Positions 8,004 to 33,230 of a stretch of DNA of 64,000 nt are shown one piece after another (the stretch's first letter is position 1; every line of letters begins with the position of its first letter). Location of the stretch: assembly GCA_038133845.1 (NCBI GenBank), contig JAYPUA010000004.1, forward strand, positions 16,971-80,970, given 5' to 3'. The translations under genes were made by a program, and so were the position numbers. Source of the stretch: Deltaproteobacteria bacterium (lineage in GTDB: Bacteria; SAR324; NAC60-12). The notes beneath the pieces were generated by a model, which was not told the DNA's origin, did no database searches, and saw only the letters and a list, made by a program, of their open reading frames with translations.

Positions 8004-9215
8004 CTAGCGCAAAGAGACGCCTTCGAGGGAGTCATCCCCCGGAGGCGCACTCTCCAAGACTTCCTTCCGGGCCACCAGCAAAAACAGCCTCCCGGCCTGT
8101 TTCATCGGACCGGCAATGCGCTCGGCCCGCTCCCCATTTCCCCAGAAAATATCTGCCCGCCCGTGCCCACGGATTGCTCCGCCCGTGTCCTGAACCACAC
8201 CAAATCTCCGCAGAGGGCGCGGCTTGTTCTCTTCGGGGAAGGCTGCTGCCGGATAGGTGGTCTCCAGCCAGACCAGGCCACCTTTGGGAATCACTCGACG
8301 GTCCATGGCAATCGAACGTTCCGGAGTCAGCGGGACCTCGATGTTTCCCAGTGGGCCCTCCTCCACAAGCCGGAAGAAGGTGTAGCTCGGATTTGTTGTC
8401 AGGATCGACTCCACCTCGTCCGGATGCTCATAGAGGTACTGCTTGATCGACTGCAGGGACATCTGCTCCCGGGGAATTTTATCGAGCAGCAGACGCCCGA
8501 TGGCAAAGTAGGAGTGCCCATTCTGCCCGGCATAGTTCAGGCGAAGCAGCGTCCCGTTGTCCAACTGAACCAGCCCGGAGCCTTGAATCTGGAGGAAGAA
8601 GACCTCGATGTCGTTTTCCAGGTAGGCCAGTGGCTGGGCCCGCTGATCCAATGAATTCTGATAGACAATTTCAGAGCGATCGTCATACGGAATCAGGCGC
8701 TTCCCGGAGAGCTTCCCGCGCAGCGTGCGCCCCTCAAGTTCATCCGAGAAGGCTCCCAGGTCGGCTTCAATCAGGTCCTCCGGCATCGCGTAGAGAGGCG
8801 AGGCGAAGGCCTCCTCCTCTGGCTGAAGACGTCCGGACAGCACGGGTTCGTAGTATCCGGTGAAGAAGGCCCGTCCCTCTTCGTTGCGGCTTTCAAAGAT
8901 GTGGAAATCTGCTCGCAAGCGCTGCTCCAGTTCGTCCTCGGAGAGGGTCTGCTGGAGGAAGAGGAAGTGGCGCATCGAGGCCTCCATCTCCCGGGCGGTA
9001 TAGGTCCACTCTCCATAGGTGAAGCTGCGGTCATCCGGGAGCCGGCCGTAGTATTCCAGCGATCGCCTGATCGCTTCGGCAAGCCCGGCGTAGCCCCCAT
9101 CGTCCACAAGGTCAGGCAGCACGGCATCGGCACCGACCGGGTACAGCCCAGGCTTGGGCTGGTGGCTGCACCCAACCAGGAGCAGCAACAGCAACGGGAG
9201 GACATACCAGCGCAT
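8004..9215 (-). CDS. mltA: Membrane-bound lytic murein transglycosylase A.
   Basis: Lipoprotein signal LLLLLLVGCS. The product is about 400 aa with MltA-specific and 3D domain-like segments. Confidence 0.8.
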   Translation of the reverse strand: MRWYVLPLLLLLLVGCSHQPKPGLYPVGADAVLPDLVDDGGYAGLAEAIRRSLEYYGRLPDDRSFTYGEWTYTAREMEASMRHFLFLQQTLSEDELEQRLRADFHIFESRNEEGRAFFTGYYEPVLSGRLQPEEEAFASPLYAMPEDLIEADLGAFSDELEGRTLRGKLSGKRLIPYDDRSEIVYQNSLDQRAQPLAYLENDIEVFFLQIQGSGLVQLDNGTLLRLNYAGQNGHSYFAIGRLLLDKIPREQMSLQSIKQYLYEHPDEVESILTTNPSYTFFRLVEEGPLGNIEVPLTPERSIAMDRRVIPKGGLVWLETTYPAAAFPEENKPRPLRRFGVVQDTGGAIRGHGRADIFWGNGERAERIAGPMKQAGRLFLLVARKEVLESAPPGDDSLEGVSLR

Positions 9216-26577: not shown

Positions 26578-26631
26578 TTCGCTCCGGTTGTTCCGGGGCA
26601 AGGTTTCCAACCCTCGTTGAGAGAGATTGTG

Positions 26632-27609
26632 ATGAAGTCGAAACTGTGGGGACTGCTCCCTTTCCTGCTGCTGTTCATGGCCACCGGAGCTCAGGCCGAG
26701 TTTTTCCAGCAGCCCCTCCTCTCGCCTCTGGAGTTGCACCGCCTCCAAGAGCAGCACCCGGAAGGCATTACGGTGGTGGACATCAGGCCACTGGAGCACA
26801 AGGTCCCCGAGGCGTCCTATACGGCAGGGCACATTCCGGAGTCCGTCTCTTCACCGTACGCAACCTGGCGCGGGCAGCCTGAAAATCCGGGGAAGATGGT
26901 GACTGTGGACAAACTCACCTGGCTGGTTCAGGCGTTGGGTGTGGAGCAGGATACTCCGGTGGTGGTGGTCCACCGGGGGGACTCTCCCAGCGATTTTGGT
27001 GCCGCAGCACGGGTGTACTGGTCGCTCAAGACCGCTGGACTGAGGGAGTTGGCGATTCTGGACGGAGGCTTTCAGGCGTGGCAGCAGGCCGGACTGCCGA
27101 TCTCCACGGAGGCACACACGGCGTTGCCCAGCGACTACGAAGTCCAGTTGAAGACAGCCTGGCTGGCTACCACTGCGGACATTGAGCAGTTGCTCAGTAG
27201 GTCCGAGGTTCAGTTGCTTGATGCGCGTCCGGAGGCTTTTTTTTGGGGAGAAAAATGGCATGGTGCTGCTGCACGTCCGGGAACGATCGCCGGAGCCGAG
27301 TTCTTTGACAACCACCGCTGGTTCCAACCGGAGAGCCCCTTGCTCGAACCCCCGGAGCGGCTGCGCAATTTGGTCCAGGAGCACCAGCTGGGACATTCAG
27401 AGGTGACGGTCTCCTTCTGCAACACAGGACACTGGGCGGCAACCAACTGGTTCGTACTCAGTGAGTTGCTCGGAGTGGAAGGGGTGAAGCTCTATCCGGA
27501 GTCGCTGGTCGAATGGTCCTCTGCCGGGCTCCCCATGGATCACGTCCCGGGAAGCCTGCGCTGGGCCTGGATTTCGACGCGGCAGTGGCTGAACGCTCAG
27601 TTCAACTGA
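26632..27609 (+). CDS. Periplasmic tandem-rhodanese sulfurtransferase.
   Basis: Signal peptide MKSKLWGLLPFLLLFMATGAQA, two rhodanese-like halves and an active-site Cys in CNTGHWAA. Confidence 0.8.
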   Translation: MKSKLWGLLPFLLLFMATGAQAEFFQQPLLSPLELHRLQEQHPEGITVVDIRPLEHKVPEASYTAGHIPESVSSPYATWRGQPENPGKMVTVDKLTWLVQALGVEQDTPVVVVHRGDSPSDFGAAARVYWSLKTAGLRELAILDGGFQAWQQAGLPISTEAHTALPSDYEVQLKTAWLATTADIEQLLSRSEVQLLDARPEAFFWGEKWHGAAARPGTIAGAEFFDNHRWFQPESPLLEPPERLRNLVQEHQLGHSEVTVSFCNTGHWAATNWFVLSELLGVEGVKLYPESLVEWSSAGLPMDHVPGSLRWAWISTRQWLNAQFN

Positions 27610-27611
27610 AG

Positions 27612-28757
27612 ATGACCTCCGTGAGCCTTTCCAGGTCCACCACGCTGCCTCGTGCCGGAAGTCCGGCGCGGAGGCGGGTGCTGCTTTCAGTCGGAGCGAT
27701 CCTGCTGGTGCTCACGCTGGCCATACACGCAGGGGTGAGACAGGGGCTGCTGCTCGCCATCGGCTTGGGGCTGGGAGCTACGCTGGAGGGCCTTCGCTTC
27801 GGGTTTGCCGGGCCGTGGCGCCAGGCGATCCTGAACCAGGATACCCGCGGGCTCAGGGCCCAGCTGCTCTCCATCGCCTTGGCCGCGGTGATGATGTTCC
27901 CCTTGCTGGGACAGGCTTCCGGGGAGTTGATCGGGGCTGCAGCTCCACTGGGGGTTGCAATGGTTCTGGGAGCGTTTGTCTTTGGGGCCGCGATGCAGGT
28001 GGTGCTTGGCTGTGGATCAGGGACGCTGGTCAACGCAGGTAGCGGCAACCTGACGGGGCTCTGGGTGCTCCCATTCTTTGTGGCAGGAAGCTTCCTCGGG
28101 ACCCTGCACCTGCCCGAGTGGAGCTTGTTAGGGAGCCTGCCTCCGGTGGTGATCAGTCATGAGTTGGGCACGGCGGGAGGCCTGATGGTCACTGCAGGTG
28201 GGCTGCTCGGGCTGGTGTTGGTGCTGCGACATCGCGCGGCTCCGGACGAGCAGAGGATCCCGCTACGGCTCTGGAAAGCCGCGGGGCTCCTGGCCGTTCT
28301 TGCCACGCTCAACCTCCTCGTCTCCGGGCAACCTTGGGGAGTCGTCTATGGCCTCGGGCTCTGGGGCGCGAAGCTGGCCCACTGGTCCGGAGTGGAGTTG
28401 AGCGGATTTGCCTTCTGGGATGCTCCCGGAAATGCCGGGCGGCTGGCGGAAAGCCTGCTGCTCGATGTGACCTCCGTAACCAACCTTGGCATCTTGCTCG
28501 GTGCCGGGCTGGCAAATTGCTGGAAGGGGGAGTTTGCGCCTCAGGTCACGCTGACCCCCAGGCTGTGGATTGCCGGCGCTGGAGCTGGGCTTTTGCTGGG
28601 ATATGCCTCTCGGTTGGCCTACGGCTGCAACGTGGGGGCATTTTTCAGCGGGATTGCCTCCGGAAGCCTCCACGGCTGGGTCTGGTTTGCTTCAGCTTTT
28701 GCAGGCTCCTGGGTTGGAGTGCGCCTGCGCAATCGTCTGGTAGGAGAAGTTCCGTGA
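27612..28757 (+). CDS. YeeE/YedE family inner membrane transporter (thiosulfate or selenium importer-like).
   Basis: The two duplicated signature Cys motifs VVLGCGSGTLVNAGSGN and RLAYGCNVGAFFSGIASGS. The start is 3 nt after the rhodanese stop. Confidence 0.8.
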   Translation: MTSVSLSRSTTLPRAGSPARRRVLLSVGAILLVLTLAIHAGVRQGLLLAIGLGLGATLEGLRFGFAGPWRQAILNQDTRGLRAQLLSIALAAVMMFPLLGQASGELIGAAAPLGVAMVLGAFVFGAAMQVVLGCGSGTLVNAGSGNLTGLWVLPFFVAGSFLGTLHLPEWSLLGSLPPVVISHELGTAGGLMVTAGGLLGLVLVLRHRAAPDEQRIPLRLWKAAGLLAVLATLNLLVSGQPWGVVYGLGLWGAKLAHWSGVELSGFAFWDAPGNAGRLAESLLLDVTSVTNLGILLGAGLANCWKGEFAPQVTLTPRLWIAGAGAGLLLGYASRLAYGCNVGAFFSGIASGSLHGWVWFASAFAGSWVGVRLRNRLVGEVP

Positions 28758-29118
28758 GCCCAACACGACAAATAACGATCCTGCTACTCTGGGGAATGTT
28801 GCTGGGGCTGCTTGTTCTGGATGCGCTACACAGCCTCCCCATCGACCGGTTCCAGTTGCCCCCGCCTCTGGCGTGGGGTTCCGGGAGTCTGGCCTCCGGA
28901 GGGTTTTGCGCAGTTTCTCCTCAGTAAGAGCCCCCGATTCCTTCTCCCCCAAACATCCATCAGGTCCTCAACCAAACCGCGAAACCATCTGCCCCTCAGC
29001 TTTCAGGTGGACCTATTCCAGATCCGGACTTGCAACCCTGAGGCTTAGCCATTATGTTCAGTTGTTGAACAATTTCTGCCAGAAGCAGGTTTTGGCAGAT
29101 TGCAAGTCTTGATTTTTG

Positions 29119-29685
29119 ATGAGACCAGAAGACCAGAGGGTGCTCAGTCTGCTTGAGGCCGTTGAGCAGAGCCCTTCCCTGAATCAGAGAGATCTGGCCC
29201 AGCATTTGGGTATCTCGTTGGGGATGACCAACGCGTACCTGCAGAAGGTCCTCAAGAAGGGCTTCCTGCGGGCCACGCAGGTTCAGCCACGCCGTTGGCT
29301 GTACTTCCTAACGCCTCAGGGGGCCTTGGAGAAGAGCCGGCTCAGCCTGAGTTACCTCCACCGGACCCTGGAGTCCTTCAAGGAACTCCGACGACGGACC
29401 GAGGAGATGCTGCTCCGCTTGGAGCAGCAAGGCGTCTCCGGGGTACACGTCTGTGGGGGTGAGGACCTGTCGGACATCGTGCAATTGTGTCTGGCCGGAA
29501 GTGAAATCCACCTGCTCTCTCAGATTCCCGAGGCGCAGCTGCGGGACTCCTCACAGGCCCTCCCTGAACTGCGCCACTCGGAGCGTCTCCTGCTTGCTGT
29601 GGTCGAGCCTGATCCTCAACTTTTGGAAGCCCTCCTTGCCCGAAACCTCAAGGAGTCCCGGGACTGGATTCGATTTCACTCCTGA
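29119..29685 (+). CDS. Winged-helix transcriptional regulator resembling EPS-associated MarR-family regulators (TIGR04176-like), with an extra C-terminal region.
   Basis: LGISLGMTNAYLQKVLKKGFL...RRWLYFLTPQGALEKSRLS matches the MarR_EPS pattern. The ORF-track start at 29116 is TTG; the ATG is at 29119. Confidence 0.5.
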   Translation: MRPEDQRVLSLLEAVEQSPSLNQRDLAQHLGISLGMTNAYLQKVLKKGFLRATQVQPRRWLYFLTPQGALEKSRLSLSYLHRTLESFKELRRRTEEMLLRLEQQGVSGVHVCGGEDLSDIVQLCLAGSEIHLLSQIPEAQLRDSSQALPELRHSERLLLAVVEPDPQLLEALLARNLKESRDWIRFHS

Positions 29686-31553: not shown

Positions 31554-32312
31554 TCAGGCCTCCTCCACCTCTTCCATCTGTTCGATCAGCCGCTGTACCG
31601 CCTCCACAAGGGCGGCGCGCATCTCGGAACGCTCCTGAGGATCGTCCATCTTCAGAATGCGCTCGCAATAGCCGGTGAGTTGCTGCAGCGACTCAAATAC
31701 CTGCGCGTCGGCCATCTTGTAAACCCAGCTTGAGTCCTCCGGGTCAACAGGCTCCGGGAGTGGCTCCGGCAAGGCCTGCTGCTCCTTGAACCGCTTGAGG
31801 GTCTCTCTCAGCTCTCGAATGCTGGGGGCCGGCTTCTCGCCTCGTGCCTGATTCCAGACGGTCTCTCGCTCTTCCGGGGTCTCACAGCTGCTCAGCAAGT
31901 AGGCCCCAGAGGCGGTGTAGCGGGAGATCAGCTCCGGATGATCCGCATACGTCTCGGCCACCTTGCGGCACTGCATCGCCGAGGAGTAGGGCATGTTGAT
32001 GTTCTCCGTGTACCACGACTTGACCTGCTCCGTGGTCAGTCCGGACTTGCGCAGCGCCTTGTGCAGCGCGCTCAGGTGCAGGCCGAGCTGAAAGTAGTCG
32101 TCGGAGATGTTGTCGATGAAGCGGTTGATCTGCTCGACCACCAACTGCATGCGCTCCGCCCCTTCACTGAGGCTGAGTTGCTCCAGGCCCAGTTCAGGAA
32201 CAAAGAAGTCTCGCTGCGTTCGAGTCGGGGCCTTGGACTCCAGCAGCTCTGTGCTGCCTTCCTGGGCAATGGTGGACTGGGAGACCAGCTCGATCTTAAG
32301 CGACTTGGCCAT
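31554..32312 (-). CDS. Hypothetical protein encoded immediately downstream of ParA, overlapping it by about 17 nt. Candidate ParA partner or adaptor.
   Basis: About 252 aa with a Lys-rich N-terminus (MAKSLKIELVSQ), a predicted helical body and an acidic tail EQMEEVEEA. No ParB GxRR motif. Confidence 0.4.
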   Translation of the reverse strand: MAKSLKIELVSQSTIAQEGSTELLESKAPTRTQRDFFVPELGLEQLSLSEGAERMQLVVEQINRFIDNISDDYFQLGLHLSALHKALRKSGLTTEQVKSWYTENINMPYSSAMQCRKVAETYADHPELISRYTASGAYLLSSCETPEERETVWNQARGEKPAPSIRELRETLKRFKEQQALPEPLPEPVDPEDSSWVYKMADAQVFESLQQLTGYCERILKMDDPQERSEMRAALVEAVQRLIEQMEEVEEA

Positions 32313-33090
32313 GGCTGCGTCGTTCCTTTTCCCGTTGGGCAATGCGCTTCATGATCTCCTTGCACAAGGCATCATACATGTAGGCACCGCGGGTTCTCCC
32401 CGATCGGTAGTCAAAGATGTTCTGGTGAAAGGCCGGGGCTTCCTGAATGGAGACCGTCTCTTCGATCAGGTTGCTGAACATCAGCTCCGGCCACTGCTCT
32501 TGAAGCCCCTTGCGGATCGTCTGGGAGAGGTTGGTCCGGGTGTTGTAGCGAGTGATGGCAATCCCGAGCACTTCTGCCTGGCACTGTCCCAGGGATTGCC
32601 GCTGGAACTGGCTGATGTAGTTCATGATCTGGTCGCAACCGCTGTAGCCGAGGTAGTCCGTGACAACCGGGACGATCACATAGTCCACATACATCAGCAA
32701 GTTGCGGCTCAGGTCACTCCAGCTAGGGGCGGTGTCCACAATCACGATTCCCTGGCTGATCGGTTCCAGGAGCTTGCGCAGAAAGGTCTCGCGCTGTCGA
32801 GACTGAGCCAAGGACTGGGTCGCCTCGACGATCTCCGTCCCTCCGGAGGGGAGAAAGTAGAAGTGCCGATCCAGTTCAATGAACTCGAACTTCTGCACCC
32901 GCCCCAGGATCAGGTTGGCCAGGTTGCAGACGTGATCTCGCTGAAAGATGGTGGTGACGTTCGCCTGGACGTCCGAGTCGATCAGGAGCACATCGCGCCG
33001 AGCCTTGGCAATACGGGCCGCCAGATTGACGGAAAGGCTGGTCTTGGCCTGTCCACCTTTCATGGACATCACGGCGATTTTGATGCTCAC
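32296..33090 (-). CDS. ParA/MinD-family P-loop ATPase.
   Basis: Deviant Walker A SMKGGQAKTS with the signature Lys; length 264 aa. Confidence 0.8.
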   Translation of the reverse strand: MSIKIAVMSMKGGQAKTSLSVNLAARIAKARRDVLLIDSDVQANVTTIFQRDHVCNLANLILGRVQKFEFIELDRHFYFLPSGGTEIVEATQSLAQSRQRETFLRKLLEPISQGIVIVDTAPSWSDLSRNLLMYVDYVIVPVVTDYLGYSGCDQIMNYISQFQRQSLGQCQAEVLGIAITRYNTRTNLSQTIRKGLQEQWPELMFSNLIEETVSIQEAPAFHQNIFDYRSGRTRGAYMYDALCKEIMKRIAQREKERRSHGQVA

Positions 33091-33230
33091 ACAACTCCGG
33101 ATCAGATGAAAATGCGGTCAAAGTCGGATGCTGAAAAGGTATCAAGGTCGCCTCAAAAGACAAGCTGATGAGAACACCCGGGATGCTGGAGATCAGCGGA
33201 GCAGCCTGGAAGGGCGTATCGGCGGGAAGC

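Follow-up and report, generated by a model that had tools for sequence, protein, structure and literature searches.

Background

What does a ParA-type ATPase position when the gene beside it does not encode a ParB? ParA/MinD ATPases are universal spatial organisers, their adaptors set what is positioned, and many ParAs are still "orphans". The question is raised here by two overlapping genes in a 64,000-nucleotide stretch of a SAR324 genome (Deltaproteobacteria bacterium, assembly GCA_038133845.1, contig JAYPUA010000004.1, positions 16,971 to 80,970), referred to below as the window. A first-pass annotation of this stretch had described the genes as a ParA-type ATPase with an uncharacterised partner and had likened them to systems that position cargo other than DNA. 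Nothing has been reported in the literature on partition proteins of SAR324.

In our view the pair is probably a real ParA-type positioning module, with the partner as a probable new kind of adaptor. Profile comparisons and predicted structures agree that the core of the partner is a divergent DUF3102 domain. Our preferred reading, to which we give a probability of roughly 0.5, is that the partner is an analogue of ParB that lacks the CTPase domain and links DNA to ParA.

A gene pair that stays together

The locus consists of the following features.

32296 to 33090, minus strand: parA-like gene, 264 amino acids (aa), GTG start (open reading frame and sequence; Pfam AAA_31/CbiA; closest structure Soj 1wcv; invariant catalytic residues)
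31554 to 32312, minus strand: partner gene, 252 aa, ATG start, predicted to be all-helical, with no direct Pfam family (open reading frame, 142 homologs, AlphaFold2 (AF2) models)
32296 to 32312, minus strand: overlap of the parA 3' end with the partner start codon, exactly 17 nucleotides (nt) (direct sequence reading)

The ParA protein begins MSIKIAVMSMKGGQAKTS and the partner MAKSLKIEL. The GTG start of parA and its sequence context are kept in all related loci, and a Shine-Dalgarno-like AAGGA lies 8 nt 5' of the partner ATG. The overlap, put at about 17 nt in the first-pass annotation and confirmed at exactly that length, suggests that translation of the two genes may be coupled.

Homologs of the partner number 142; they are about 245-260 aa long and 42-72% identical, and their named sources are only SAR324 cluster bacteria, "Candidatus Lambdaproteobacteria" and "Deltaproteobacteria bacterium TL4". 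(The TL4 genome is not labelled as a metagenome-assembled genome and may come from a culture.) Searched exhaustively with the family profile, 1.84 billion cluster representatives yielded no more than three full-length clusters at 50% identity, besides fragments; hence the family is narrow. The ATPase is confined just as sharply to a clade of this lineage: among SAR324 sequences identity is 60% or more, and it falls at once to 33% or less in the next tier, the ordinary Soj-like ParAs.

When one genome per GTDB species was scanned, 27 partner loci were found, all of SAR324 type and one per genome, on contigs of up to 0.86 Mb; a further homolog lies on a contig of 3.47 Mb (ERZ25067581). ParA stands immediately upstream of the partner in 26 of the 27, as it does in locus L001 and in the window, with a gap between the genes that ranges across clades from -17 to +181 nt. 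What surrounds the pair is different in each deep clade. In the window it is flanked by aceB and a pot-like operon; six loci have a XerC/D-type recombinase upstream and an IDH or QueD-like gene downstream; and in the marine clade the order is lepA, a pfaD-like gene, the pair, a VCA0040-like gene and the atp operon. Since the pair is kept while its flanks differ between deep clades, we regard it as a self-contained, vertically inherited module. No relatives of the partner were found on plasmids (tblastn) and none of the pair in a collection of viral contigs, and the GC content at the pair is native and unremarkable. The pair occurs in single copy on the chromosome, and only in SAR324/Lambdaproteobacteria. 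Thus the first-pass annotation was right that the ATPase has a dedicated partner and that no plasmid is evident.

It might be objected that the two genes are chance neighbours, or that the smaller one is a mis-called reading frame. Nothing specific speaks for this beyond the lack of a database family for the partner itself. Synteny effectively refutes it, the two being neighbours in 26 of 27 genomes whose flanks differ, and 142 full-length homologs with an invariant core, a confident model of that core and the overlap of the genes point the same way; we consider such an explanation hardly credible.

The ParA-type ATPase

The ATPase matches Pfam AAA_31 at 2.9e-29 (102.7 bits against a cutoff of 27) and CbiA at 5e-18 (65.6 against 25.4). 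Its Walker A motif, MKGGQAKTS (KGGQAKT), carries the signature lysines Lys11 and Lys16; K11, G12, G13, K16 and T17 do not vary within the SAR324 clade and are common to Soj, and the Walker A' residues D38/D40 and the Walker B residue D119 are also invariant in the clade. The reading frame, the Pfam matches and these motifs bear out the earlier assignment to the deviant-Walker-A ParA/MinD ATPases.

Among solved structures the closest relative is Soj of T. thermophilus (1wcv, E 3e-26), followed by the ParA-family protein 8ray (9e-21), Soj of H. pylori (8e-17) and delta of pSM19035 (1e-9); McdA (7e-7) and FleN (6e-6) are weaker matches. An ATPase like that of McdAB, one of the systems to which the first-pass annotation likened the pair, is therefore not what we find, chromosomal Soj being far closer. 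No NCBIfam equivalog cutoff is reached, the score for ParA_partition (NF041546) being 70 bits against 180. Judged by its sequence, the SAR324 ParA looks like an active, Soj-like deviant-Walker-A ATPase, small and of type Ib size.

The partner and its relation to DUF3102

An alignment of 28 homologs, on which per-segment statistics were computed, and the AF2 models divide the partner into several parts, three of which can be placed on the DNA as follows.

32253 to 32312, minus strand: codons of the conserved N-terminal peptide, aa 1-20 (alignment conservation; predicted disorder)
31773 to 32144, minus strand: codons of the DUF3102-like helical core, aa 57-180 (hhalign, profile search, Foldseek, core-only model)
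31572 to 31721, minus strand: codons of the predicted C-terminal two-helix hairpin, aa 198-247 (AF2 model)

The N-terminal peptide has the consensus MAKxLKINLxSQSEIxQEG, in which K/R3, L5, L9, Q12, I15 and G19 are invariant or nearly so. It is followed by a variable acidic linker (aa 21-50) and then by a very conserved core (aa 51-182; top-residue frequency 0.78), with near-invariant segments NMPYSSAMQC(R/K)KVAE.Y and RYTASGAYLL. A variable linker and a moderately conserved C-terminal region complete the protein. AF2 predicts the first 39 residues to be disordered, with a predicted local distance difference test (pLDDT) score below 50 in the region of the peptide, the core to be a seven-helix bundle and the C-terminus a two-helix hairpin (helices 202-221 and 225-247, pLDDT 85-91). 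A model of the core alone has pLDDT 88.5 and a predicted template modelling score of 0.75. The hairpin is a candidate dimerisation element.

This anatomy differs from the earlier description of a fast-evolving protein with a Lys-rich N-terminus and an acidic C-terminus. Residues 1-20 have a net charge of 0 and a single near-invariant K/R, at position 3. The C-terminus is acidic in the window protein (net -7), which is not a family trait (median -1). Nor is the protein fast-evolving, given the identities among its homologs, the top-residue frequency of its core and its conservation across the phylum.

Assigning the partner to a family is not straightforward. Pfam, NCBIfam, PHROGs and PADLOC gave only matches at noise level. 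Searches of the PDB by sequence, with the profile of the family, with the homolog P0261 and with a DUF3102 profile, returned no relatives, only coiled-coil noise, and Foldseek comparison of the full-length model with the PDB returned nothing significant. A weak NtrX/HTH_8 hint fell on the long helix of aa 52-91 and led nowhere. One homolog, P0092, is a 226-aa protein on a 785-nt metagenome contig, with 63% identity to the partner across 70% of its length; a Fis-type HTH_8 domain (aa 181-218) forms its C-terminal tail. It is most likely a chimera produced by misassembly or a frameshift, and we do not take it as a guide to the architecture of the family.

The link came from the profile search of the 1.84 billion sequences. 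Its matches at E 2e-5 to 7e-4 include four PF11300 (DUF3102) proteins over the matching region. Comparison of the partner family with these four by hhalign gave a probability of 98.6% (E 9e-16), and with an independently assembled DUF3102 alignment of 30 members 96.4% (E 1.4e-9); residues 57-180 of the partner align to DUF3102 positions 13-146. The full-length model matches viral DUF3102 proteins in BFVD at a Foldseek probability of 1.0. The Pfam model PF11300 itself matches neither the window partner nor any of 28 homologs at E up to 10. Because profile search, hhalign and Foldseek agree, we assign the predicted core to DUF3102, as a divergent member. About 56 aa precede the core in the partner, against 12-16 aa in DUF3102 proteins, and we regard this region, the peptide and the acidic linker, as an addition specific to SAR324.

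DUF3102 genes either belong to an early or replication module, in phages, phage-plasmids and plasmids alike, or lie close to recombinases and Prim-Pol. Their typical neighbours are helix-turn-helix (HTH) regulators, single-stranded DNA-binding protein (SSB), DnaD/DnaC loaders and helicases. As an observation apart, in locus L035, on a Cytobacillus plasmid (NZ_CP071710.1, 26409-29235), a DUF3102 gene directly follows genes for a PcfJ-domain protein and an AcrIIA9-family anti-CRISPR protein and is near an SSB gene, a layout that recalls plasmid leading regions or anti-defence islands.

If its relatives belong to mobile elements, the SAR324 pair might itself be descended from a replication or partition cassette of a phage or plasmid, and its main task might now be regulation and not the movement of a cargo, for instance of replication initiation, transcription or the choice of division site (compare Soj-DnaA, MipZ and Noc-like proteins). 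The almost exclusive occurrence of DUF3102 relatives in mobile-element contexts is in keeping with such a domestication, as are the tyrosine recombinase directly upstream in one clade and the single lineage (L031) in which the partner has no adjacent ParA. However, the pair is single-copy, is inherited across deep SAR324 clades and has native GC, and collections of plasmid, phage and viral-contig sequences yielded no relatives of it; the recombinase is of XerC/D type, with a SAM_1 N-domain, and not a typical phage integrase; and the full set of ATPase motifs, with the conserved N-terminal peptide, argues for a working ParA-partner cycle. On balance we find a domesticated regulatory module an unlikely, though still live, alternative.

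Is the cargo DNA?

Four lines of evidence lead us to favour DNA as the cargo, at even odds. First, the ATPase is closest to ParAs that segregate DNA (Soj, HpSoj, delta). Second, DUF3102 occurs in the context of replication modules. Third, the top match of the core-only model in the PDB is the DNA-binding region of a ParB, that of the H. pylori Spo0J-parS complex (4umk_D; probability 0.96, TMq 0.60). Fourth, one clade has a Xer-type recombinase gene that points the same way as the pair and lies directly upstream of it in L001 and five other loci (e.g. L014, L020, L028, L030). In L001 the recombinase gene (8249-9163; Phage_int_SAM_1 and Phage_integrase domains) is directly 5' of parA with a gap of 25 nt, which suggests that in this clade xer, parA and the partner may form one operon. 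As support for a role with DNA this is guilt by association, and weak.

Sequence profiles do not bear out the resemblance to ParB. Searched at E up to 10 with Pfam and NCBIfam models, the partner and 28 homologs give no match to the ParB/Srx CTP-binding domain, which carries the GERRxRA box, and no motif of the GERRxRA type stands in their alignment. Neither ParB/Srx nor ribbon-helix-helix (RHH) families are matched in Pfam or NCBIfam, in agreement with the first-pass annotation, which had seen no ParB signatures. An alignment of the partner with ParB made by eye is not relied on here, the hhalign comparisons being non-significant and their registers inconsistent. The ParB resemblance is a weak lead from structure and context, short of established homology.

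Several further observations weigh against a DNA-linking partner. The Spo0J match has a root-mean-square deviation of 3.5 A over 136 columns and an E of 0.5, which is not significant. The second-best PDB match of the same model (m38b758c4e955; window 31767-32171) is the alpha domain of Raf1, the Rubisco accumulation factor (6kkm), at TMq 0.54, probability 0.90 and again E 0.5, a score close to that of Spo0J. Compared by hhalign with a small alignment of ParB DNA-binding domains, the partner core reached a non-significant probability of 0.8%; DUF3102 was non-significant too, in a register inconsistent with that of the partner. The core has a median net charge of 0, i.e. it is not basic. No experimental function of DUF3102 has been reported in the literature, and outside SAR324 no ParA stood beside a DUF3102 gene in the contexts examined. 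In locus L031 (6001-6732 on CBDDTI010000745.1, a contig of 620 kb) the partner homolog P0241, of 42% identity, has no adjacent ParA. It lies directly 3' of malQ, the 4-alpha-glucanotransferase gene, with an intact N-terminal peptide, MAKQLDVTF..QSQI; the ParA of this lineage, if any, must lie elsewhere in the genome.

The ATPase adds a point of its own on the same side. In B. subtilis Soj the arginine R189, within IPRNIRLSEAP, is known to be needed for non-specific DNA binding. The segment IPRN(I/V)RLxEAP of Soj is IEE(S/T)VSIQEAP in 15 of 15 SAR324 ParAs (window 32458-32487, residues about 202-211), with Ser at the position of R189. With the equivalent of R189 missing, the known way of binding the nucleoid cannot be taken for granted for this ParA, although other basic residues could stand in.

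A centromere was also looked for. The sequence of parS is TGTTNCACGTGAAACA. Repeat finding detected no iterated repeats near the pair, and no palindrome is conserved across clades in the operon and 300 nt on either side (28 loci); the palindromes that recur are limited to single clades and fall within coding sequence. These results too count against DNA. With inspection of spacers and flanks included, no parS-like site was found near the operon, and no canonical ParB or second ParA was detected in the window and the fetched SAR324 loci, which amount to about 0.4 Mb only and not to whole genomes. The first-pass annotation had considered that a ParB/ParG-type partner with a nearby parS would mark a remnant plasmid partition module; the partner has no such identity, and neither repeats nor palindromes of a parS-like kind accompany it.

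There is a conserved non-coding element of another kind.

33136 to 33163, minus strand: conserved non-coding block upstream of parA, with a promoter-like layout (alignment across loci)

The block, TTGTCT, 16 nt and TGaTACCTT, lies about 45-75 nt 5' of the parA GTG. As CTTGT.TT.T...G....CATG.TA...TT it can be aligned between the window, L007-L014 and the marine clade; most clades have it, but it is missing wherever parA comes straight after the upstream gene. A scan with the sigma-70 consensus did not call it (7/12 positions match). From its layout it may be a promoter or an operator. In the marine clade, parA and the partner are separated by a spacer of 94-181 nt with lineage-specific elements (L012/L018/L032; L015/L016/L017/L027; L024). 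The spacer of L024 (5907-6000) has four tandem AAACCTGA units and those of L012, L018 and L032 a TTGCGGTCTTGATGAACGCAA hairpin, neither of which is conserved across clades.

With these points in mind one can suppose that the cargo is not DNA at all. The partner would then anchor some protein assembly (for instance a microcompartment, a storage granule, a chemoreceptor or another cluster) to the ParA gradient, in the manner of McdB, ParP or TlpT. In line with this are the lack of a recognisable DNA-binding family at the sequence level, the ATPase without the Soj arginine, the searched loci without a centromere-like site, and the extreme diversity of the partner proteins of ParA/MinD ATPases (PMC10241942). 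The Raf1 match is a curious addition, though its E is as weak as that of Spo0J, and it is probably a generic similarity of helical bundles; it deserves mention in that carbon fixation has been reported for some SAR324.

Yet no gene that could encode a cargo recurs beside the pair across clades in the flanks of the window and the fetched SAR324 loci; the conserved cargo gene that the first-pass annotation proposed to look for was not found. ParA is much closer to the DNA-segregation ATPases than to McdA or FleN, and the homologous DUF3102 family sits in phage and plasmid replication or early modules. The partner is also strongly conserved, unlike the fast-evolving or low-complexity McdB; so the proposed likeness to adaptors of the McdB type does not hold up well, and the DUF3102-like core points towards DNA. 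A non-DNA cargo is, in our estimate, possible but rather unlikely.

Within the preferred reading, of a partner that links DNA to ParA, a bolder proposal can be made. The SAR324 chromosome might be segregated by a centromere binder of DUF3102 type, devoid of a CTPase domain, together with a divergent Soj-like ParA, either in place of ParB or beside it. We think this unlikely as it stands.

A possible mechanism

How might such a module work? Partners of ParA/MinD ATPases act through a disordered N-terminal motif with hydrophobic residues around K/R (PMC12462528, PMC10241942). The N-terminal peptide of the SAR324 partner fits this description: it has hydrophobic residues and a conserved K/R in a segment predicted to be disordered. 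By analogy, we infer that aa 1-20 are the motif that binds and activates ParA. The peptide, on its disordered acidic linker, would dock on the ATP-bound ParA dimer and trigger hydrolysis, in the way of the N-termini of ParB, ParG, MinE and McdB. The DUF3102-type core, a putative HTH-type domain, would hold the cargo, most likely DNA, through its HTH-like surface, and the C-terminal hairpin would dimerise the partner and so pair two N-terminal peptides. If this is correct, the chromosome, or one defined region of it, would be segregated or positioned by the usual diffusion-ratchet mechanism of ParA, and the module would operate much as type Ib and chromosomal ParA systems do.

The surroundings in the window

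The immediate neighbours are metabolic genes, as the first-pass annotation stated, with aceB and polyamine-type transport on the two sides. Downstream of the pair lies aceB, for malate synthase. Upstream is a PotABCD-like ABC transporter (a PotA-like ATPase with a TOBE_2 domain, two permeases and an SBP_bac_8 binding protein), beyond which come a class-III aminotransferase gene and then FolD. Apart from this, there appears to be a small sulfur-handling cluster at 26617-29685. It has a gene for a rhodanese-domain protein (26617-27609) whose end overlaps that of a Sulf_transp family membrane protein (27513-28757), and a gene for a 189-aa winged-HTH (HTH_24) regulator (29116-29685) that is convergent with aceB.

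Implications

What appears to be new here is a ParA module with a class of adaptor derived from DUF3102, one that lacks the CTPase domain of ParB, is all-helical in its models, unlike RHH binders, and has neither the carboxysome linkage nor the fast evolution of McdB. The adaptor family has clear bounds: it belongs to one abundant and mostly uncultured marine phylum, SAR324, in which it is conserved, single-copy and tied to its own clade of ParA. Were the partner to bind DNA, ParA-linked centromere binders would gain a third structural class, next to RHH and to the ParB-type HTH with its CTPase domain, and a phylum would be able to run the positioning of its chromosome, or of a locus, without a ParB clamp. 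Should the reading as a CTPase-less centromere binder be true, it would also provide the first function, that of a DNA-binding adaptor, for the DUF3102 fold, which is widespread in the early regions of phages and plasmids. If the partner binds a protein cargo instead, it marks a new positioned structure in SAR324. With either type of cargo we gain a concrete, testable handle on DUF3102.

Comparison with known systems

The DUF3102 proteins share a homologous helical core with the partner, and helical or coiled-coil C-terminal regions are present in both. They do not have the N-terminal peptide and linker of the partner, and in the contexts examined their genes were never beside ParA, unlike that of the SAR324 protein.

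Among positioning systems, the McdAB, ParC/ParP and PpfA/TlpT pairs resemble the SAR324 module in combining a ParA-family ATPase with a lineage-restricted, non-ParB partner that is expected to act through its N-terminus (PMC10241942). In contrast to McdAB, no carboxysome or Rubisco genes occur here in the flanks of any clade, though a cargo locus may lie farther off. Nor is there an adjacent cargo operon, as in non-DNA systems generally, and the similarity of the ATPase to McdA is slight beside that to Soj (E 7e-7 against 3e-26). The SAR324 partner is conserved and structured, where theirs are disordered and fast-evolving.

The type Ib plasmid systems (ParF/ParG of TP228, delta/omega of pSM19035, par2 of pB171) are likewise two-gene operons with a small ParA that has no N-terminal HTH and a partner unrelated to ParB. 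In them a flexible N-terminal tail of the partner contacts ParA, which is what we propose here by analogy, and a promoter-like block upstream of parA is a further likeness. Their RHH partners, however, are of roughly 70-80 aa, whereas the SAR324 protein has 252 aa, all-helical models with no beta-strand ribbon and no RHH match in Pfam. Iterated centromere repeats upstream are not found here. The module is chromosomal and phylum-wide, while theirs are plasmid-borne.

With chromosomal ParABS (Soj/Spo0J) the module shares a small Soj-like deviant-Walker-A ParA and a partner gene directly downstream. The partners also have the same apparent layout of an N-terminal peptide (MAKGLGKGI in B. subtilis Spo0J, MAKSLKIEL here), a linker, a helical core and a C-terminal helical element. 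They differ in that the SAR324 partner has no ParB/Srx CTPase domain, no GERRxRA motif and no significant sequence or profile link to ParB; no parS was found in the searched loci, and the ParA falls below the ParA_partition cutoff and has no arginine of the R189 type.

HpaAB of Haloferax volcanii offers a precedent: there, the lineage-specific and until then uncharacterised partner of a ParA homolog was found to be a centromere-binding analogue of ParB that acts through its N-terminal region (bioRxiv 10.1101/2025.11.19.689047). HpaB is a protein of about 150 aa with an RHH motif that serves a secondary replicon of an archaeon, and is unrelated to the DUF3102-like fold.

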